Below are positions 3,200 through 60,590 of a stretch of 64,000 nucleotides of DNA, piece after piece. Under the pieces are notes generated by a model that was not told where the DNA came from, made no database searches, and worked only from the letters and a program-made list of their open reading frames with translations. Source of the stretch: Octopus vulgaris (Eukaryota); the NCBI GenBank assembly GCA_951406725.2, contig OX597822.1:34844001-34908000 (forward strand), in the 5' to 3' direction. Every line of letters begins with the position of its first letter. Position 1 is the stretch's first letter. The position numbers and the translations under genes were made by a program.

Positions 3200-3638
3200 T
3201 GGACGATCCAATGCCACCCAGTACACTTCAGGAAAGAAGACATCTGGAAGGCACCGAAGAACCTGTAAATTCTACCTGCGGGGCAAATGTTGGCATGGTG
3301 AGGACGGCAAAAACTACCGGTTCGCCCACCCGACACCCCGCCAGAACTTCAGGGGACTCAAAGAGAAAAGCTTTAGCAAGGGGACACAAGAAATGTGTCC
3401 CAGGAAAAGTTTCAAAAACGAAGTGCGCTCCTCAGACGTTCTGCGCAACGCAGCAGCTGAGCAAGAGTCTTTTTTATGCATGGCGCAAAGAATTGTCCGG
3501 CAGCTAACCTGGCTACACCAAGCACAGAGAAGGAACCCTGCCCACCAGAGAAGGAACTATGCAAGACCACCACAGTCAACAGACACGGGATGGCCTCCCC
3601 TAACGCCTGCACAGCCGTCACCCCAATACTTTTACTAA
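3200..3638 (+). pseudogene. LINE ORF1 remnant with CCCH-type zinc finger
   Basis: CKFYLRGKCWHGEDGKNYRFAHP: the third Cys position reads Y; lies immediately upstream of the APE domain. Confidence 0.6.
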
Positions 3639-6583
3639 ATATTGGGGGCCTGTTGCATCAAAATAGAAACAAAATGTCTTTCCTGCGAGATCTTACTGCA
3701 TGCAATCAATCCCTATGCATAGCACTTGTGGAAACTCACCTCAACCCTGATATAGAGGACGCAGCAGTACACATACCAAACTATGCCATACTGCGAACAG
3801 ACAGAAGGGAAAGGAGCTATGGTGGAGTTGCTGTATACATCCGAGATGACCTCACACCCCAGGTCTTAATGACATACTCAAATTCGGTATGTGACACTTT
3901 AATTGTATACATAAGAAAACATAATATAGTCATATGCAATACATATTGCCCACCGGATGCCTCAAATCACATAGGCAAGTTTGAAGATTGCCTCACAAGA
4001 ATTAAATAAATCCTCAGGAATCTGGAACACAACGTGACCATATTTCTTATGGGTGATTTCAACTTCCCCAACGTCAAATGGCCCGAAGGTCACATACTAT
4101 CAGGAAGGAATCATTGCAAGCAAGTACAGGTGGAGTCCCTGCTCAACCTCACCAATGCCTTATTCATGGAGCAAGTTGTACTCAAGCCAACTAGGGCGAA
4201 TAACATTCTGGATCTCTGCTTCACCAACAATATGGACATCATTCATGATGTGAAAGTGACACTGACATCAGTTGCGGATCACAACATAATAGAGCTGTCT
4301 ATGTTTGGGCCAAAAATAACCAGAGACATACAGCTTAAAGGAAGCACCCGAAATCTCTCCAATCTGAAATTCCACAAAGCAGATTGGAAATTGATCCAAA
4401 AAGGGATCGTCAGAGAGGACTGGCCGGAATGTCTCTCCACACCAGACATTGACATGAAACTAGAATGTTTCATATCTTCTGTGCAAGCCGTATGCCAGAA
4501 ATATGTCCCAGAGCACAAGGCCAAAACAAATAGGAGCAAGATTCCAAGAGACAGGAAGATCCTCATGAGACGACGGACAAAGGTTGCAAATCGTCTCAAC
4601 CAACATCCCAAAACTAGCGAAACATCCCGCCTAAAAACAAAACTGATGGAAATCGAAAAAAGGCTGCAACAATCCTATGTAAAGGAGAAAGCAGACAAAG
4701 AAGCCCGGGTTATAAAAAGCATTAAATCAAACCCAAAGGCCTTCTTTCATTACGCGAAAGAAACAGTCTCAGTGCACTACAAGATAGGACCCACCTCCAA
4801 AAGGATGGCTCCTTCACAGACAGTCCAACTAAGATCAGTGAGATGCTGAATGACCAGTTCAAAAGTTTCTTTACCACCCCGTTGGAACACAGACAAGTGA
4901 ACGAATGAGTGGACTTCTTTGCCGCCTCACATATAACCAGCGAGGCGGTTACAATAGAATGTATTGACATTAGCGAAAAAGATGTCCTACTAGCCATAGA
5001 TGAAGTGGACTCAAACTCAGCTGCTGATCCAGATGGTTTCCCAGCAATCCTCCTCAAAGCGTGTACGATGCCCTGGCAAAACCCTTCAAGATTCTCTTCC
5101 AGAGCTTTCTTGCGAATGGCAAACTGCCAAGCAAGCTGAAGGAGGGAATAATATGCCCAATACATAAAGGGGGAAGTAGAGCAGATGCCAAAAATTATAG
5201 GCCTATCTCTCTCACTTCACACATCAGCAAAGTCATAGAATGGATAGTCAGAAAGAAACTGATCGCATTCCTTGAGGAAAATAACTTGCTGAGTGATACC
5301 CAGCATGGTTTTCGACCAGGTAGGAGCTGCCTGACCCAGCTCTTACAACATTATGACGGGGTGTTGAGGCAGTTACTCAACAAATCAAATGTGGACGTAA
5401 TCCACCTTGATTTTGCAAAAGCTTTTGACAAGGTTGATCATGGTATGATATGCCACAAACTGCGTGACCTCGGTATAGCTGGAAAACTTGGAGTGTGGTT
5501 ACATTACTTCCTGAAAGATAGGAGTCAAGCAGTAGTGGTTAATGGAGCCACCTCTATGAACACACAAACGGTGAGCGGTGTTCCACAGAGCACTGTCTTG
5601 GGACCACTGCTTTTTATAGTGGCCCTCTCAGATACGCCCTCAAATGCCCGGATAGCCACTCTGGCCAGCTATGCAGACGATACGAAAGTTTCGCAGAAAA
5701 TACAGAACCCCAGCGATGTTGCACACCTGCAGCAGGAGTTGGATTCAATCTACAGATGGGCTGAGGATAATAATATGCAGGTTAATGCTGAAAAATTCCT
5801 GACCCTGCGCAACCAGCATCCAAAACTGAATATTAAACTTACAGGATACACTGGTTCACAGGGAATTTCAATCCCAGAGCCTAAGTCTGTGAGGGACCTG
5901 GGTATCGACATGAGTGATGATACCTCTTTCCAATGCACATTACCAGGATGGCGACAGAGTGCAGACGACTGGCTGGGTAGATCCTAAGAACATTCAGAAC
6001 CAGAGATAAGGAAACCATAATGGTTCTATGGAGGACATTCGTTCTCAGCCGCCTGGATTACTGCTCACAGCTATGGTCACCCACCAGTGTAAAATTAACA
6101 GCGGACCTTGAAGCAATCCAGAGAAGATTCACAAAGAAGATCGTCTCTTTGCAACAGCTCAGATACTGGGAAAGGTTGAAACAGCTAAGACTCTACTCCC
6201 TGGAGAGAAGACGGGAGAGGTATGCAGTAATATATGTCTGGAAGATCCTGGAAGGAATTGTGCCAAATTTTGGCATTGTAAGCTACACCAGTGCTAGAAC
6301 GGGAAAACACTGCATAGTGCCAAAGATCGCAGCAATACCATCACGCTTCAGGACCAGCTTCTGCAACAGCCTGGGTTTCAAGGGCCCACAGCTTTTTAAT
6401 ATTCTCCCAAAGAGTCTGAGGAACTTGAACAAAGTAGATGTAGCGGTTTTTAAATCAAAGCTGGACATCTTCCTGTCGAGAGTCCCAGATGAACCTACCT
6501 CACGGCAAGAGGTGCACATGAGAGTAGCTATATCAAAGTCCATTCTTCACCAAGTGCCACATATTACACGAGGTTCTTCGTAA
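3620..6583 (+). pseudogene. LINE ORF2 (APE endonuclease + reverse transcriptase), disrupted
   Basis: APE motifs LLNIGGL, ALVETHL, GGVAVYIR, MGDFNFP, LDLCFTN, DHN; RT motifs NYRPISLTS, QHGFRPGRSC, LDFAKAFDKVDH, GVPQSTVLGPLLF, YADD. In-frame stops at ~4007 and ~4906; frameshifts near 4795, 5065 and 5930. Confidence 0.93.
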
Positions 6584-6908: not shown

Positions 6909-7509
6909 TAAGAGAGTTGATGTATGAAAGCACGTGGCTGGATGTATAAAAAATAAAAATGAGTGAAAAACTACAGAAGGCTTGTGTTATAATGTTAAAG
7001 AATATATTTAAGTCGTTTTGTTAGAAAAATGTTAGAAAATTTTGTGTATAGTAACATAGTTTTGGGAGAAATAACCAGTTTCGTATTTTCTTTTCAAATT
7101 TCTGAAATGTCTTTATCTACATCGTGTCATGTCTTTGCTAGGTTGTGAAATATGGGGTTCCAGGCAGGGGAAGGTAATCAGGGATTTCTTCCGGTATAAG
7201 AGAGATAAACAAACTTGTTGGGTATGACTAAATAAATATTATTTAGTTTAGAAGAAACAGAATGTTGTCAGCTTTTGCTTTATATCTTTTCTCACAAAGA
7301 TCCCCACAAAAAAATAGATCCTCACAAAGGCAAAATTGTTTTCTGAAATAACGGATGCAAAAGTAAAAAAATGTGGTAGACCAAACTGCGCAATATGCCC
7401 AAACCTTCTAGAAGGATCAAAATTCCTCTTCAAAGAGGGACAAAATTTCAAGATCAAATCTAATTTTACGTGTGCTTCAGAAAATATCATAAGGTGTTCG
7501 GGCTGCCAG
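6907..7509 (+). mobile_element. Penelope-like element fragment (Cys-rich linker upstream of GIY-YIG endonuclease) next to (TA)n
   Basis: 7318-7509 encodes ILTKAKLFSEITDAKVKKCGRPNCAICPNLLEG...FKIKSNFTCASENII-RCSGC, matching the Cys-rich linker and start of PLE GIY-YIG domains; preceded by non-coding pLTR-like sequence that starts at the (TA)n edge. Confidence 0.75.
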
Positions 7510-7923
7510 TGGGTGGTGGCGATCCATGCTGTACTCTCTCGCCACAACTTTCTCTCACTCTTTCTTCTGTTGGCCTGCTCGCGTAGCCAGCGGGGTGGCG
7601 TCATTTGAAGGCTAAAACAATGCGAAGCACATTGTGACCAGCGATGTGTAGCAACATGTGATTGCCTGGTCGGTCACGTGATCACGTGATCTATATGTAT
7701 GTATACGTATGTTTCATATTGAAAGGTTAGACTTATATAGAAGGTAGTCTGAAAAAATATGAGAAGACAAAGGAATAAATGATATCTTATGAACTTCATC
7801 AAATTACAGCTGATTCTCCTATAAGATGCAATGGACTCATAGTTGAGCCTATGAACAACACCTAATAGCCTCATCACAGCTATGGGTCTACTGCACCTTT
7901 TGGCAGGAACAGTTGTTAGTTTT

Positions 7924-12705: not shown

Positions 12706-13145
12706 TAGGCGTACTTGCTGATCTTTTAGTAGAAAGAACAACGCACCGAAGTGTGCCAAGATCTCTGTCAACGTGTCGCTGATGACCCATCTTTCATGTC
12801 GAGAATCATCACCGATGACAAGAATTGGGTGTGCAGATCCGACCCTGTGACGAAGCAGCAGTCGTCATAATGGAAAAGTCTTTCTTCTCCATGGCCGAAT
12901 AAGGCATGACAGAGCCGCAGATCAATCAAGATCATTCCCATCGTATTTTTCAACATCCGCTGTATTGGGCATTCGTTTCTCAGGGCCTGAGCGTCAATCG
13001 AGAGTTCTACAGTGATATTTTGAAGCGTTTGTGGGTGGATATTCGGCGAAAGCGACTGGATCTGTGGAGTCCGAAGAATTGGATTCTTCATGACAACAAT
13101 GCACTCTGTCATCGAGTTCTCCTCACTGGTGACTCTCTTGTCATA

Positions 13146-13378
13146 AAGCGGCGAGCTGGCAGAAACGTTAGCACACCGGGCGAAATGCTTAGCGGTATTG
13201 CGTCTGTCGTTAGGTTCTGAGTTCAAATTCCGCCGAGGTCGACTTTGCCTTTCATCCTTTCGGGGTCGATAAATTAAGTACCAGTTACGCATTGGAGTCG
13301 ATGTGATCGACTTAATCCGTTAGTCTGTCCTTGTTTGTCCCCTCTAGGTTTAGCCCCTTGTGGGCAATAAAGAAAGAG
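13146..13378 (+). mobile_element. SINE family A monomer
   Basis: GCGGCGAGCTGGCAGAAACGTTAGC...GAGTTCAAATTCC...GCCTTTCATCCTTTCGGGGTCGATAAATTAAGTACCAG (resembles the MetaSINE central domain)...GCCCCTTGTGGGCAATAAAGAAA. Confidence 0.9.
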
Positions 13379-22940: not shown

Positions 22941-23206
22941 TATAATATAAAATTCAGTACACGTGTCACACACAACTTTATACATCGATAATGAAATACT
23001 GTTACATAAAATCGTAAAGGACCACAACAAAACCTACCATCGAGATAACATACACAAAAGAAGCAATCGGACAATCAAACTGACCTTTACATTTTTACAA
23101 AACAAATAATCTAGCATAGCATGAACGGGCTTTAAACCGCACACTACAAGGTGTATATCCGAATGTAAAATTATGTGTATGTGTGTAGGATTCTCCACAC
23201 TGTTTC

Positions 23207-23625
23207 CTATTTCTTTATTACCCACAAGGGGCTAAACATAAAGAGGACAAAATAGGACAGACAAACGGACTAAGTCGATTACATCGACACCAGTGCGTTA
23301 ACTGGTACTTAATTTATCGATCCCGAAAGGATGAAAGGCAAAGTCGACCACGGCAGAATTTAAACTCAGAAGGTAAAGACAAACAAAATACCTATTTCTT
23401 TAATACCCACAAGGGGCTAAACACAGAGAAGACAAACAAGGTCAGACAAAGGGATTAAGCCGATTATATCGACTCCAGTGCGTAACTGGTACTTAATTTA
23501 TCGACCCCGAAAGGATGAAAGGCAAAGTCGACCTCGGCGGAATTTGAACTCAGAACGTAGCGGCAGACGAAATACCGCAAACTATTTCACCCGGCGTGGT
23601 AACGTTTCTGCCAGCTCGCCGCCTT
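23207..23625 (-). mobile_element. SINE family A tandem dimer
   Basis: Two ~185-bp units plus head; short GTTTCC direct repeat on both flanks; sits inside an older family B copy. Confidence 0.88.
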
Positions 23626-29077: not shown

Positions 29078-29526
29078 TTCATTCATTTGTTAACAAGTAT
29101 TAAAAGTAAATCAGGCCGGATTTTAGTTGCTGTGTCTCCATTGTATTTAGGATATTTTAGCTCAGAACTGAGCAGGAGGAGGTTGTGAACTGAAGATCAT
29201 AAGCTACAAACAGGTAACCGACAATTCAACAGTGTTTCTCCTCTCGTATTTTATTATATTTAATGCTGGAAAGGCTATAATAGCGGAGGCGTTTTTCTTG
29301 GGGAACCACGCAGAAGTAAAATCAAAGACATAAAACTTTGATCTTTCGTCCGATTTACATAACGACCTCCCACTCACATCTCACAAATCACAAATACTTA
29401 AATCTCAGAAAGGGCAATTAAAATATCACAGAATGTCGGCGAAATCCCAACAGATAATATCCACGCTGTTGCAAGTGCAAAGCAACCCCAAATTAATCGG
29501 CTTTCAGTGTTTTATATTTGTTTTAT

Positions 29527-29735
29527 TCATTAGACTGCGGCCATACTGGGGCATTGCCTTCAAGAGATTTTAGTCGAATGAATCGGTGCTAGCACTTATT
29601 TTGTTTAAAGCCTGGTACTTATCGTATCGGTCCGTTTTGCCGGACCCCTAGGTTACGGTTAGGTAAAAACACCGACACCAATTGTCAAGCGGTGGTGGCG
29701 GAAAAAAGACACAAAGACAAGCACACACACACACA
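29527..29735 (-). mobile_element. SINE family B 3' half (its head is at 31145-31292)
   Basis: GACTGCGGCCATACTGGGGCA...TATCGGTC...TTGTCAAGCGGTGG...CA repeat. Confidence 0.75.
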
Positions 29736-29736
29736 T

Positions 29737-29980
29737 CTATATAATAAAGGTGGCTTTATTTACATTATTTACATTCGATGGATATTTGTCCTCATCTTGT
29801 TAACACAACGTTTCGGCTGATATACTTTCTAGCCTTCTTCAGGTATCTTCGGGAAATTTCGAACCTGGATTCTGATTTCTAAAGTATTTTTCGATGTTAT
29901 TATTATTATTATTGTTCAGGTAACTGCTTGGAATCGAACTCGGAATCTTGAGGTTAGTAGCCCGCGCTCTTAACCACTAC

Positions 29981-29988
<8 letters not shown>
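29737..29988 (-). mobile_element. tRNA-headed (Pol III) element carrying a hammerhead ribozyme
   Basis: A box TGGCGTAGTGG (29984-29974), B box GTTCGATTCC (29939-29930), (AAT)n linker, hammerhead at 29847-29802; abuts (TA)n. Confidence 0.75.
29802..29847 (-). ncRNA. Minimal type I hammerhead ribozyme
   Basis: GATAC CTGAAGA A-GGCT-AGAAAGTATATC-AGCC GAAA CG TT GTGTT; palindromic AACGTT stem III of the minimal PLE type. Confidence 0.72.
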
Positions 29989-30069
<81 letters not shown>

Positions 30070-30308
30070 TTAAGGGTAGAAATTGATATTTATCAATTAA
30101 GACCAGTGGTCTAGCATATTAAAAAAGAATCCGAAGATTAAAATATTTATATATACCAATTAAGGACTGAACACGAAAAGTGGACAGTCAACATGCTAGA
30201 TATAGACGTCAAATCGTCATTCTCCACAAAAGATTATGTTCTCAGATCAAACTCAACACAAAACCATAGCAATAAACAAGTGAAAAATATACGAAATAAA
30301 ATAATTAC

Positions 30309-30373
30309 CCATGTACTAACTTAGTTTCAGCTGTTATTTTCCGCAAGGAAAACTGCAGCCATCATCAGCATGG
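30309..30373 (-). ncRNA. Type I hammerhead ribozyme (minus-strand copy)
   Basis: Reverse complement of 30467-30531. Confidence 0.85.
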
Positions 30374-30466
30374 TCCGTTATAAATGTAATTTACAAATTA
30401 CATTTATAACGGACCATGCTGATGATGGCTGCAGTTTTCCTTGCGGAAAATAACATTTATAACGGA

Positions 30467-30531
30467 CCATGCTGATGATGGCTGCAGTTTTCCTTGCGGA
30501 AAATAACAGCTGAAACTAAGTTAGTACATGG
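30467..30531 (+). ncRNA. Type I hammerhead ribozyme
   Basis: CCATG CTGATGA T-GGCTG-CAG-TTTTCC-TTGC-GGAAAA-TAA-CAGCT GAAA CTAA-G-TTAG TA CATGG. Confidence 0.87.
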
Positions 30532-30682
30532 GTAATTATTTTATTTCGTATATTTTTCACTTGTTTATTGCTATGGTTTTGTGTTGAGTTTGATCTGAGA
30601 ACATAATCTTTTGTGGAGAATGACGATTTGACGTCTATATCTAGCATGTTGACTGTCCACTTTTCGTGTTCAGTCCTTAATT

Positions 30683-30738
<56 letters not shown>

Positions 30739-31144
30739 TGAACGTCACGCATTCTCTTCCAAGTAAGTTTTATCTTAATAATTCTGATTTACACCCTATA
30801 CGATCTTTTTACTCTTTCATTTTTCTCTCTTTCTCTCTCGTATTCTTTTACCTCCTTTTCTCGTACTACTGTATCCTATTACTCTATCACTCTCCTCCCT
30901 TGCTCACGTGGCTCCCGCGTAACCATCGCACATCTTTCTTATTTTTCCTAACCTGTGTTTCTTCCACTCCGTTGTAGCTGGAACAAGGAAGACGCGTTCT
31001 TGTCTGTCCAAGCTTGATTTACTACAACTAAGTTTAGGCTTAGCAGCCCTTCCTGTTTGTTTTCACTGCCCTCTTTGTGTTACCAATTTTGACCCTCTGC
31101 AAAATCACAAATTTGTATATATATATATATATATACACATACAT

Positions 31145-31292
31145 ATACACGATGAGTTTGTTTCAGTTTCTGTCTAACAAATCAACTCACAAAGCTTTGG
31201 GCGGCCCGAGGCTATACTAGAAGACACATGCCCAAGACGCCACGCAGTGGAACTGAAGCAGGAGCCATGTAGTTGGGATGCAAGCTTCCTAC
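31145..31292 (-). mobile_element. SINE family B 5' half
   Basis: TTTCAGTTTC..TC...CTCACAAAGCTTTGG...AGAAGACACATGCCCAAG..CCACGCAGTGGAACTGAA. Confidence 0.8.
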
Positions 31293-31510
31293 CTCAAAAT
31301 GAAGGAAAATATTTATCATTCATTTCAGTTATTGGTGAACCTTTATTTACCGAGTAAGATAAAAATGTACTAAACTTATGTCAACAAATAATTGCAAGTT
31401 TTGAATAGACTGATAGACAACTTTTTTGACGGTATATAATATAACTTTGAAACTCTGCTTTGTAAACTAATGATGCGTCGGGTAAGTATTCCGTATTCTT
31501 GTTTTTACAG

Positions 31511-37790: not shown

Positions 37791-38582
37791 AAGGCGGTGA
37801 GCTGGCAGAAACGTTAGCACGCCGGGCGAAATGCTTAGTGGTATTTCGTCTGCCGCTACGTTCTGAGTTCAAATTCCACCGTGGTCGACTTTGCCGTTTC
37901 ATCTTTTCGGTGTCGAGTAAATAAGTACAATGTACGCACTGGAGTCGATGTAATCGACTTAATCCCTTTGTCTGTCCTTGTTTGTTCTCTGTGTGTTTAG
38001 CCCCTTGTGGGTAGTAAAGAAATAGGTATTTCGTTTCTCTTTACATTCTGAGTTCAAATTCCCCCGTGGTCGACTTTACCTTCCATCCATTCGGAGTCGA
38101 GTAAATAAGTACCAGTTACGCACTGGAGTCGATGTAATCGACTTAATTCCTTTGTCTGTCCTTGTTTGTTCTCTGTGTGTTTAGCCCCTTGTGGGTAGTA
38201 AAGAAATAGGTATTTCGTTTCTCTTTACATTCTGAGTTCAAATTCCCCCGTGGTCGACTTTACCTTCCATCCATTCGGGGTCGAGTAAATAAGTACCAGT
38301 TACGCACTGGAGTCGATGTAATCGACTTAATCCCTTTGTCTGTCCTTGTTTGTTCTCTGTGTGTTTAGTCCCTTGTGGGCAGTAAAGAAATAGGTATTTC
38401 GTTTCTCTTTACATTCTGAGTTCAAATTCCCCCGTGGTCGACTTTACCTTCCATCCATTCGGAGTCGAGTAAATAAGTACCAGTTACGCACTGGAGTCGA
38501 TATAATCAACTTAATCCCTTTGTCTGTCCTTGTTTGTCCTCTCTGTGTTTAACCCCTTGTGGGTAGTAAAGAAATAGGTATA
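37791..38582 (+). mobile_element. SINE family A tandem tetramer with TSD
   Basis: Head plus four ~183-bp units; TSD TGTTCCGAGT at 37781-37790 and 38583-38592. Confidence 0.92.
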
Positions 38583-46389: not shown

Positions 46390-47300
46390 AAGGTGGTGAG
46401 CTGGCAGAAACGTTAACACGCCTGGCGAAATACATTGTGGTAGTTCGTCTGCTTAGATCTATAAAAACATCCCTCTATTATAATTTCTGGTTTCTGATAT
46501 CCTTTATAAAGCAAAAGAATTTTTATGAAAAATTTGAAATATGGTCTGAGTTCAAATTCCACCGAGGTCGACTTTGCTTTTCATCCTTTCAGGGTCGATA
46601 AATTAAGTACCAGTTACGCACTGGGGTCGATATAATCGATTTAATCCATTTGTCTGTCCTTGTTTCTCCTCTCTATGTTTAGCCCCTTGTGGGTAGTAAA
46701 GAAATAAGTATTTCGTCTGCTGTTACGTTGAGTCCAAAACTCGCCGAGGTCGACTTTACATTTCATCCTTCCGGGATCGATAAATTAAGTACCAATTACG
46801 CACTGGGGTCGATGTAATCGACTTAATCCGTTTGTCTGTCCTTGTTTGGCCCCTCTGTGTTTAGCACTTTGTGGGTAATAAAGAAATAAGAAACGTTAGC
46901 ACACCGGGCAAAATGCTTAGCAGTATTTCGTCTGTCTTTACGTTCTGAGTTCAAATTCCAACGAGGTCGACTTTGCCTTTCATCCTTTCGGGTCGATAAA
47001 TTAAATACCAGTTACCCACTGGGGTCGACGTTATCGACTTAATCCCTTTTGTCCTTGTTTGTCCCCTCTGTGTTTAGCCCCTTGTGATCAATAAAGAAAT
47101 AAGAAAAGCCAGCATGCCGGGCAAAATGCTTAGCAGTATTTCGTCTGTCTTTACGTTCTGAGTTCAAATTCCACCGAGGTCGACTTTGCTTTTCATCTCT
47201 TCTAGGTCGATAAATTAAGTACCAGTTACGTACTTGGGTCGATCTTGTCGACTGGCCCCCTCCCACCAAAATTCAGGCCGTGTGCCTAGAGTAGAAAAGA
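46390..47300 (+). mobile_element. SINE family A tandem array (4 units) with templated insertion in the first head
   Basis: Repeated GGTCGACTTT..CTTTCATC..GTCGATAAATTAA units; the last unit has the alternative tail GGCCCCCTCCC...GTGCCTAGAGTAGAAAAGA. Confidence 0.9.
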
Positions 47301-55368: not shown

Positions 55369-56136
55369 CCCTCCCTCTGTCGGTTTGCCCCGCTCTCTGT
55401 GTCTCTGTCTTTCTCTTCGTACGTCTATCTCTTTTTCTTCTCCCTGAAACTCATTCTTTTTACGATAAACGTGATGTCCCTGTTGCATTGGGTTTCTTCT
55501 TTTTCATCTCTGCTGTCATTGTCTTTGCTATTGCTGACTGTCAACTTCAACGACTTGCGTGTATGTATATGCGTGCATATATGAGCGTATTTGTGTGTGT
55601 TTGTGTGCGCCTGTGTGTGTTTGTGTGTGCGTAGATGCAGATATAGTAGAGTTGCTATCAATGTCGACCAACATCGTAAAAGCGAAGTCCCATGAGAGAA
55701 AAACTACATTCTGTAATCGAGTCTGAAAGGATACAAATTAGAAAAATAGTAACATAAATTGATCCTAGTATCAGCATTTCTTTCTGTCTTCCTTTGTAAT
55801 TAATATCACATAAATTGATCGCTGTGAGTTGGTAGTGGTGCGTGCTTGTATATCACGCATCATTTTTTAAAAATTATACATATATATATATTAAATAGAG
55901 ACATTGTTTGTTAAACACTTATGTCCCTGTGACGCAGCCGTCTAGCTGATTGCGCTGTTAAAGGAAAGTTTGCTGGCTAAAACCCAGGCAGTGAGCTGGT
56001 ATAATCGTTAGCGTGTCGATCACAATGCTAAGCAACTTTTCTTTTCGTTTTGTTCGAATTCCGCCGAAATCGACTTTGCGTTTCGGCGTACACGGCTTGG
56101 CAATATATTTACCAGCTGAACATTGCAATTGATACA

Positions 56137-56737
56137 TATTTCTTTACTACCCACAAGGGGCTAAACACAGAGAGGACAAACAAGGACAATCAAACGGATT
56201 AAATCGATTACATCAATCCCAGTGCGTTACTGGTACTTAATTTATCGACCCCGAAAGGATGAAAGGCAAAGTCGACCTCGGCGGAATTTGAACTCAGAAC
56301 GTAGCGGTAGACGAAATACCTATTTCTTTACTACCCACAAGGGTCTAAAAACAGAGAGGACAAACAAGGACAGACAAACGGATTAAGTCGATTATATCGA
56401 CCCCAGTGCGTTACTGGTACTTATTTAATCGACCCCGAAAAGATGAAAGGCAAAGTCGACCTCGGCGGAATTTGAACTCAGAACGTAGCGGTAGGCGAAG
56501 TACCTATTTGTTTACTACCCACAAGGGGCTAAACACAGAGAGGACAAACAAGGACAGACAAACGGATTAAGTCGATTATATCGACCCCAGTGCGTAACTG
56601 GTACTTAATTTATCGACCTCGAAAGGATGAAAGGCAAAGTCGACCTCGGCGGAATTTGAACTCAGAACGTAGCGGTAGACGAAATACGGCTACGCATATC
56701 GCCCGGTGTGGTAACGTTTCTGCCAGCTCGGCGTCTT
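56137..56737 (-). mobile_element. SINE family A tandem trimer with TSD, nested in an older family A copy
   Basis: Three ~183-bp units plus head; TTGATACA at 56129-56136 and 56740-56747. Confidence 0.92.
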
Positions 56738-58523: not shown

Positions 58524-59445
58524 TATCAAGAGAGCAATAGAGAGGGAGAGATGGATGGATGGATGCATTCATACATTATAGTTGTATGTTTCCGTGCAGA
58601 TTCAGCCTTGATTGTAAAAACGGAATCCTACGAGGATAAAGTTATATTTTTATAGACTGGTCTTAAAAGCTGTCACTTGAGATATTTTCATGAATATATG
58701 GACGCATCATTTTTGTGCTATAAGCTACACACAAATACATTGATTGAAATACGTCGCTTTAAAATTTCGTTTACAATTTCCTCACATCAATTTTTTAATG
58801 CGTTTGGGCGGAAGTGACAATACAATTCTGCTCCTGCGCTCTAAAAGTACACAATCAGTCATATGTTGCAAGTAGTCCTATCCTTATATATCATCTGCTA
58901 CACGTGGGTAATTTTATCGATTTTGATGAAACTTGACACATGAGTAGAACTCATGGCTGTAAACCTCATGACATACTCATATTGTTAAAGAAAATCGATA
59001 ATAGGGCCCCTGGAATGGATACTTGTATATATCTAATATATTTTATTTTAAAAACCAAGGGAAATCATACATTCGATCCAGCAAGGGATCCTTATATATC
59101 ATTTTCCTAAATTATTGCAGTGTATCCAGTGCAAATCTTAAACAAGTAAATAGGATTTTCCTAATCAATAGATCCACTTATTTCGGTTAGTGACTTATTC
59201 AGGAATATACTAACACTAGCGCCCCTGAGGGTAATATTCTCTGTGAACGCACAAAAGCACTTTTCAGAGTTATTTACTTTGAATTGTTATTATCTCATAT
59301 CTAATTTTTCTGTTATTACGTAATATGCTTCACGATTTTTAGTATCTCCCCTATGTCCTATATACTCTTGGAACACATTAAAGCCCATTTCGGGGCTACT
59401 TTATTTGAGTTCTTTCTATCGAGTAACTAATTTGATGCTATTATA

Positions 59446-60590
59446 GAAGTCAGGTGGTAGTAACCAATGGGGCCACTTCCATTAACACGCAAATAGTGAG
59501 CGGTGTTCCGCAGGGCACTGTTTTGGGACCACTACTGTTCATAATGGCCCTCTCAGACATGCCCTCAGCCACGCAGAGAGCCACGATCACAAGTTATGCA
59601 GATGATACAAAAGTTTCACAGGCAATACAGAACCCTGAAGACACTAAGCACCTGCAATGTGAGCTGGACAAAATATACAAGTGGGCTGAAAAGAATAGCA
59701 TGCAGTTCAATACTGAAAAGTTTCAAGCTTTATGCTATCAGCATGCAAAACTAAATGCAATACCCAATAAATACACTAGACCTGGAGGGATTGCAATCCT
59801 AGAGGCACAATCAGTGCGAGACCTAGGTATTTACATGAGTGATGATGCAACCTTTCATGTGCATGTTGCTAAATTGGCAATGAAATGTAGGCGGCTGGCC
59901 GGATGGATTCTTAGAACCTTTAGAACAAGAGACCAGGAAATCATGATGGTCCTCGGGAGGACACTTGTCCTAAGCCACTTTGACTATTGCTCTTAGCTAT
60001 GGTCACCATCCAGTGTCAACTTAATCACAGAACTTGAGGCGATCCAACGAAGCTACACGAAGAAGATAGCCTCTGTGCAGCATATAAGCTACTGGGAAAG
60101 ACTCAAGAGACTAAGAGTCTATTCCTTAGAGCGTAGACGAGAAAGATATGCCATAATATATATCTGGAAGATCCTAGAAGGACTTGTCCCAAACTTTGGC
60201 ATCGATAGTTACACAAATGCCAGAACTGGGCGCTACTACATAGTGCCAATGACTCCAAATTTGCCATCAAGATGTAGGACAAGGTACTGTGATAGTCTGG
60301 GCTTCAGAGGCCCACAGCTCTTCAATATCCTCCCGAAGAACCTGAGAGACCTGCAGGGGGTGGATGCAGATGTCTTTAAAATAAAACTGGATCTCTTCTT
60401 GTCAGGTGTCCCAGATGAACCAACTTCACGGCAGGAGGTACAGATGAGGGCAGCTGTATCGAACTATCTCATGCACCAATTGGCAATTGCTAAAAAGCAT
60501 TCGTGAAGTAAAATCATGTAGCAACACCAAATGGCGGTGCCCCAGCATGGCCACAGCTCGTGAGCTGAAACTAGATAAAGATAAAGATAT
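59446..60590 (+). mobile_element. 5'-truncated LINE related to 3122-6655
   Basis: GVPQGTVLGPLLF, SYADDTKV, LERRRERYAIIYIWKILEGLVPN; in-frame TAG at 59994; same 3' hairpin; (GATAAA)n tail. Confidence 0.93.

Follow-up and report, generated by a model that had tools for sequence, protein, structure and literature searches.

Relevant passages of two studies (PMC7229834; bioRxiv 10.64898/2026.07.22.740005) describe non-LTR retrozymes as tandem repeats with type I hammerheads, and propose that they move via RNA circles with the enzymes of Penelope-like elements (PLEs). Passages of the second study also record in vitro cleavage in one of nine predicted retrozyme dimers and PLE end-repeat homology for 24 of 57 Xenopus retrozyme families (bioRxiv 10.64898/2026.07.22.740005). 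EN+ PLEs, as portrayed in parts of PMC3846280 and PMC8557442, leave insertions with an inverted 5'-truncated arm and a one-sided tail of 30-40 bp in (TA)n targets. Sections of PMC11167929 explain this tail by two reverse transcriptase (RT) start sites in vitro and report that the PLE protein of Poseidon, from the green anole, cuts and extends both DNA strands at AT-rich DNA in vitro, using uncut RNA as template. An extra U after the core strand is reported as conserved in PLE hammerheads in passages of PMC4209133. The origin of PLE inverted arms and tails, and the copying of retrozymes from rings by PLE enzymes, are stated to be open in portions of PMC8557442, PMC11167929 and PMC7229834.

The palindrome analysed here lies within a 64,000-nt stretch of Octopus vulgaris DNA (contig OX597822.1, positions 34,844,001 to 34,908,000), hereafter the window. 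As judged from sequence comparison, it is one truncated copy of a young retrozyme-type family. It can be regarded with good confidence as having arisen when a non-coding hammerhead repeat of 505 nt inserted recently, in a single event, into a (TA)n tract, likely through a borrowed Penelope-type RT/endonuclease that primed from both sides of one break. The observed base of this reading comprises the unit, its copy number, the target, two fixed outer ends about 95 nt apart, scattered inner ends, and variants common to both arms. The features of the locus, in window coordinates, are as follows.

29984-30064, no strand: left (TA)n target microsatellite; nearly all sampled family ends adjoin (TA)n.
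30065-30147, minus strand: the "tail", representing the 3'-terminal portion of the unit (positions about 410-497), present in the left arm only and recognised by family comparison; its outer end is TA-like and not placeable to the base.
30148-30392, minus strand: left arm, consisting of an 8-nt TA stretch and unit positions 1-237; the RNA-sense strand is minus.
30309-30373, minus strand: type I hammerhead motif from the motif scan, with the predicted cut between 30314 and 30313.
30393-30394, no strand: head-to-head junction with the AC loop, placed by inverted-repeat alignment.
30395-30447, plus strand: extra 53-bp copy (tandem duplication) with an orphan 5' hammerhead half, from repeat and motif analysis.
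30448-30684, plus strand: right arm, with the "short" end, running from unit position 237 to position 1; the RNA-sense strand is plus.
30467-30531, plus strand: type I hammerhead motif from the motif scan, with the predicted cut after 30526.
30685-30735, no strand: right (TA)n target microsatellite, from repeat analysis.

The palindrome and both hammerhead motifs are real, but were partly misdescribed in the original prediction, which gave arms of about 245 bp around a 2-nt loop. The exact arms and the AC loop hold: the inner arms (30332-30392 and 30395-30455) are exact inverted copies of 61 bp flanking the loop, and the outer arms (30148-30387 and 30453-30692) form an exact inverted match of 240 bp. 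However, the right arm measures 298 bp, with 53 bp duplicated in tandem (30395-30447 and 30448-30500), and the left arm extends about 90 bp further, to about 30065, with family sequence lacking a mirror image. The 53-bp duplication explains why the inner and outer arm pairs lie on different diagonals, why the predicted span exceeded two 245-bp arms by about 50 bp, and why an orphan 5' half-ribozyme is found at 30414-30447. (TA)n tracts flank the palindrome on the left and right, with the tail end on the left and the short end on the right. The junction is symmetric (unit positions 237/238), and the short arm is contained within the tail arm. According to the open reading frame list, no frame of at least 100 aa overlaps 30065-30735. 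An autonomous Penelope-like element was considered as a candidate and rejected, as the locus has no RT + GIY-YIG open reading frame.

Other repeats are present in the neighbourhood. The left (TA)n tract adjoins a very abundant repeat on the minus strand (29735-29983), for which contig depth is very high in four sequencing runs. This repeat has a tRNA-like head at about 29983-29930 (by eye; an ARAGORN tRNA search returned 0 genes), and after it comes a hammerhead-like core (about 29842-29808) whose stem II is similar to that of the 505-bp family. Broken frames of LINE-like type, whose endonuclease and RT motifs were recognised by eye, also occur in the window, together with a mariner-like fragment (likewise by eye) and part of a PLE endonuclease matched by tblastn at 4e-15; these lie at 3461-6583, 59436-60506, 12768-13319 and 7318-7662. 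In addition, the window contains tandem arrays of a 182-213-bp repeat family at 23206-23559, 37857-38581, 46562-47253 and 56132-56687.

The 237-bp arm is part of a 505-bp unit that is repeated head to tail and contains one hammerhead per unit. For the arm, every one of the 40 scored candidates (of 1400 in the 2.8-Gb genome) gave a match of 100% identity, showing that the palindrome is neither unique nor a product of chance. The earlier claim that the insertion is recent is upheld. A 24-nt hammerhead motif has 380 exact matches in the genome, compared with 0 for a control pattern. Arrays reach seven units in one orientation, copies vary in 5' truncation and length, and their ends directly adjoin (TA)n. 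Three subfamilies were distinguished, the two others being about 94% and 78% identical to that of the window. With tandem units of a few hundred bp, one type I hammerhead in each, no protein coded by frames of 100 aa or more and no LTR, the family has the anatomy of an animal non-LTR retrozyme. No description of this 505-bp family or of two-armed retrozyme insertions was found in the literature searched, which consisted of main texts, few of them from subscription journals.

The hammerheads point outward from the centre of the palindrome. They had been predicted to be intact on both strands, and one complete motif is indeed present on each, but the cores deviate from the canonical form and have no Rfam match: the Rfam search returned 0 hammerhead matches in the 64 kb at gathering score, and none among 36 matches at E<=10. 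The miRNA matches in the latter list were discarded, all being below gathering score and reflecting the perfect hairpin. [quoted passage not shown] All three subfamilies (12, 9 and 15 distinct sequences) retain CUGAUGA, GAAA and the GUA cut triplet. Counting of base pairs across subfamilies by anchored parsing revealed compensatory changes with both partners swapped, from C-G to U-A in stem I and from A-U to G-C in stem III. For a single arm, the predicted pairing probability is above 0.96 for stem II, 0.22-0.83 for stem I and 0.02-0.08 for stem III, while two copies of stem III are predicted to pair at -8.6 kcal/mol, with energetics pointing to a dimeric ribozyme. The circular 505-nt unit has a predicted fold of -137 kcal/mol (z=-5.6 vs 60 shuffles).

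Two further observations concern the hammerheads. Just 3' of the motif, a donor-like GT is followed by a U-rich stretch and, about 140 nt on, an acceptor-like AG (30313-30166 on the minus strand and 30531-30674 on the plus strand, all by eye), an arrangement that, by eye, looks like the intron retained in the end repeats of PLEs. All three subfamilies keep the donor-like motif. In addition, the flanks of sampled loci (L113, L116, L129, L139, L142-L144, L146, L043 and L047) contain other hammerheads whose stem III is palindromic; these are of at least eight types, some of them on both strands.

Head-to-head arms are the normal insertion form of this family. The sample comprised 40 of 42 clusters among the first 100 listed motif matches, restricted to loci containing the hammerhead motif; the inverted, 5'-truncated arm typical of PLE insertions was present at 29 of these 40 loci, and the other 11 were in a single orientation. 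By extrapolation, the family has about 160 such loci. Outer ends fall at two places only, apart from irregular cases: unit position 1 ("short"), or about 400-410 ("tail"), which lies about 95 nt further 3' on the RNA strand. Among the 29 two-armed loci, 26 combine a short and a tail end, thereby displaying the one-sided tail of PLE-type insertions, three have one irregular end, and none has two like ends. The probability of obtaining 26 short-and-tail pairs without like ends by chance is 0.5^26 = 1.5e-8. Older subfamilies show the same pairing wherever two arms are visible, at loci selected by a query with the tail or the motif. By contrast with these fixed outer ends, the 69 inner ends are scattered uniformly over the unit (KS p=0.43), with three near the predicted ribozyme cut vs 2.3 expected; as inner ends are not enriched there, the cut site is no barrier to copying. 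At the 29 junctions, classified from approximate BLAST ends, the arms overlap in 19 cases, are blunt in three and are separated by inserted bases in seven. Two independent loci, L042 and L055, have their arms joined at one and the same inverted repeat within the unit (positions about 300 and 226), which is a helix in the predicted RNA fold.

Sequence variants bear on the template. A rare variant is common to both arms at 10 of 29 loci, and subfamily markers agree between arms at 15 loci and disagree at two, indicating that both arms derive from the same RNA species. At L016, a 26-bp duplication occurs in both arms of one insertion, a further sign of a common template. Rare substitutions within arrays were counted at sites covered at least three times per array, leaving out L042, L055, indels, the TA-like zone and two rearranged patches. 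Of the 54 substitutions obtained, 38 occur in one unit, nine in all units and seven in some units, which is mostly as repeated copying of one ring would give. A single ring alone is insufficient for the seven partly distributed substitutions, which need later duplication, two templates or a multimer.

Variants common to both arms would also be expected if one cDNA had folded back on itself, primed its own extension and copied back to yield the second arm, a self-priming route that passages of PMC3846280 argue for at palindromic PLE junctions. This origin is unlikely. Its strongest footing is the window copy, with its symmetric junction and contained short arm, together with four symmetric junctions among the 29 other two-armed loci, a mild excess (p=0.03). 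However, these symmetric junctions sit at self-complementary sites, where two cDNA ends would anneal too. Moreover, a fold-back copy cannot exceed its template in length, and the arm lengths vary both ways. The short arm is longer than the body of the tail arm at 11 of 26 loci, excluding copying of short from tail; the tail arm surpasses the short arm in length at 15 of 26, excluding copying of tail from short; and at three of 26 each arm has sequence absent from the other, excluding both. No single fold-back rule thus fits the family. Arm lengths rule out simple snap-back as the family-wide mechanism, though not for the window copy, and the excess of symmetric junctions leaves room for fold-back in a subset of insertions, the window copy included. 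The one-off snap-back event originally proposed is not supported by these comparisons, since the same layout recurs at 29 of 40 loci with different junctions.

Perfect hairpins are a known class of artefact, and contig pieces from four sequencing runs, aligned to 29400-31400, cover the arms while none of the pieces listed crosses the junction or the whole stretch. An assembly or chimeric-read artefact at this locus is nevertheless very improbable: the flanks are unmirrored, the arms differ by the tail and the 53-bp duplication, and the short-and-tail rule is also followed by 26 further loci, by older subfamilies and by an autonomous element, whereas an artefact would obey no such rule.

A selected regulatory hairpin has also been considered, in which the ribozyme is masked by the antisense arm and the duplex feeds ADAR or Dicer to the benefit of the host. 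Folding predictions agree with the masking itself, as the original prediction had proposed: the predicted structure of RNA read through the palindrome is a hairpin of about -450 kcal/mol in which the ribozyme helices do not form, the pairing probability of stem I being 0.00 on either strand. The accompanying suggestion that a transcript of either strand could self-cleave is weak, because the arms are head to head and the antisense arm is therefore transcribed first in any read-through; only RNA initiated inside the palindrome is predicted to be able to fold the ribozyme, with stem III stable only as a dimer. A host function, however, is highly doubtful. The majority of insertions share this layout, their arm lengths being arbitrary, and many dispersed copies have exactly the sequence of the arm, which thus shows no sign of locus-specific selection. 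The nearby frames of the open reading frame list are all repeat-derived, with no host exon recognised. The hammerhead in this truncated copy is, on the predicted folds, likely masked and without a host role. Finally, a palindromic MITE of a DNA transposon with TA target duplication would account for inverted ends flanked by TA, but is scarcely credible in view of arrays of up to seven units, variable 5' truncation, unequal ends, a conserved hammerhead and 11 of 40 loci without an inverted arm, neither a fixed length nor matching terminal inverted repeats having been found.

The two-armed layout likely records Penelope-type enzymes pasting such RNAs into DNA, not a regulatory switch. In this two-sided priming, the enzyme would cut both strands in (TA)n, and the two DNA ends would prime on the same RNA species, either a ring or an uncut multimer, one of them from the tail site and one from the short site. 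Both cDNAs would then be extended toward the 5' side of the RNA, halt at variable points and be joined head to head, often via short complementarity. For the window copy, both cDNAs may have halted around position 237 of the unit, and the 53-bp duplication may have arisen by slippage at a repeat that matches at 7 of 8 nt. The use of the hammerhead to the family would be to cleave tandem transcripts into pieces of unit length, probably in dimeric form. A more specific version can be put forward only tentatively, namely that a dimeric Penelope-type enzyme carries a single RNA ring produced by the ribozyme and primes from the two ends of one (TA)n break, each subunit being committed to a different start site. 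If this were true, genomic copies would be the footprint of rolling-circle, two-ended priming, which would explain the PLE tail and inverted arm and link retrozymes with the enzymes of PLEs. Insertions of this kind would, in addition, scatter hundreds of perfect hairpins through the genome of a lineage with heavy RNA editing.

Penelope-type enzymes are encoded in the genome. A young family at 17 loci (L091-L107) contains an open frame of 771-781 aa with RT and GIY-YIG domains, and the cysteine linker in the 781-aa protein suggests the Neptune type, based on the motif given in a section of PMC8557442. Copies of this family terminate in (TA)n at one of two points separated by 40 nt. Among 17 copies examined, the end was found for 15, of which 12 are short and three tail, and both of the two inverted copies are of the short-and-tail form. 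The same loci have an upstream frame of 479 aa with no Pfam match. No CUGANGA core was evident in the scanned end regions of the intact element. No homologous PLE end emerged when the unit was compared by BLAST with 40 of the 148 GIY-YIG loci listed (6136 candidates), a comparison that may overlook divergent clades such as Hydra. A tblastn search of all sampled loci with the 781-aa protein likewise gave no PLE with a homologous end. At one GIY-YIG locus, an older relative of the unit is inserted beside the element. The RT + GIY-YIG element, which has no detectable sequence in common with the unit, shows that the needed activity is present in the genome; it is not evidence of partnership.

Although the palindrome itself is ordinary for its family, part of the value lies in the family-level rule of one start site per end. 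A young, protein-free substrate of 505 nt with two fixed start sites, one per end, provides a small template for in vitro work and many natural insertions for comparison.

The family is of the retrozyme type and is inserted in the layout known from PLEs. Like animal non-LTR retrozymes as presented in passages of two works (Cervera & de la Pena 2020, PMC7229834; Li, Clavereau & Pollet preprint), it consists of a non-coding tandem unit with one type I hammerhead, occurs as dispersed monomers and multimers, has a weak stem III and shares its genome with PLEs. The 505-nt unit also falls inside the 51-972 bp retrozyme range given in a passage of bioRxiv 10.64898/2026.07.22.740005. The likeness here is drawn from primary structure and predicted folds, whereas RNA circles and cleavage are features of known retrozymes. 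Two-armed insertions, the tail and the (TA)n target set the family apart, being absent from the passages and word searches of PMC7229834 and bioRxiv 10.64898/2026.07.22.740005; within the same coverage of these texts, "octopus" has 0 matches and no cephalopod is mentioned. In the hammerhead, the conserved G10.1-C11.1 pair of PLE-type motifs, as described in part of PMC4209133, is replaced by G.U in the window subfamily and by U.U in the oldest subfamily, and stem II differs from that type in being long with an internal loop. Like EN+ PLEs in the sections cited above, the insertions have a head-to-head inverted arm, a tail at one end only, partial tandems and 5' truncation, and they share the (TA)n target with the PLEs Naiad and Hydra. 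Unlike EN+ PLEs, the family is without an open reading frame, its tail measures about 95 nt vs 30-40 bp, and each arm may span several units. As in the reported account of Poseidon, two internal RT start sites bound the tail. However, Poseidon is described there as having no strand difference in start site and no homology between RNA start and DNA, whereas insertions of the octopus family employ a single start site at each end, and the two sites resemble the target in being TA-like.
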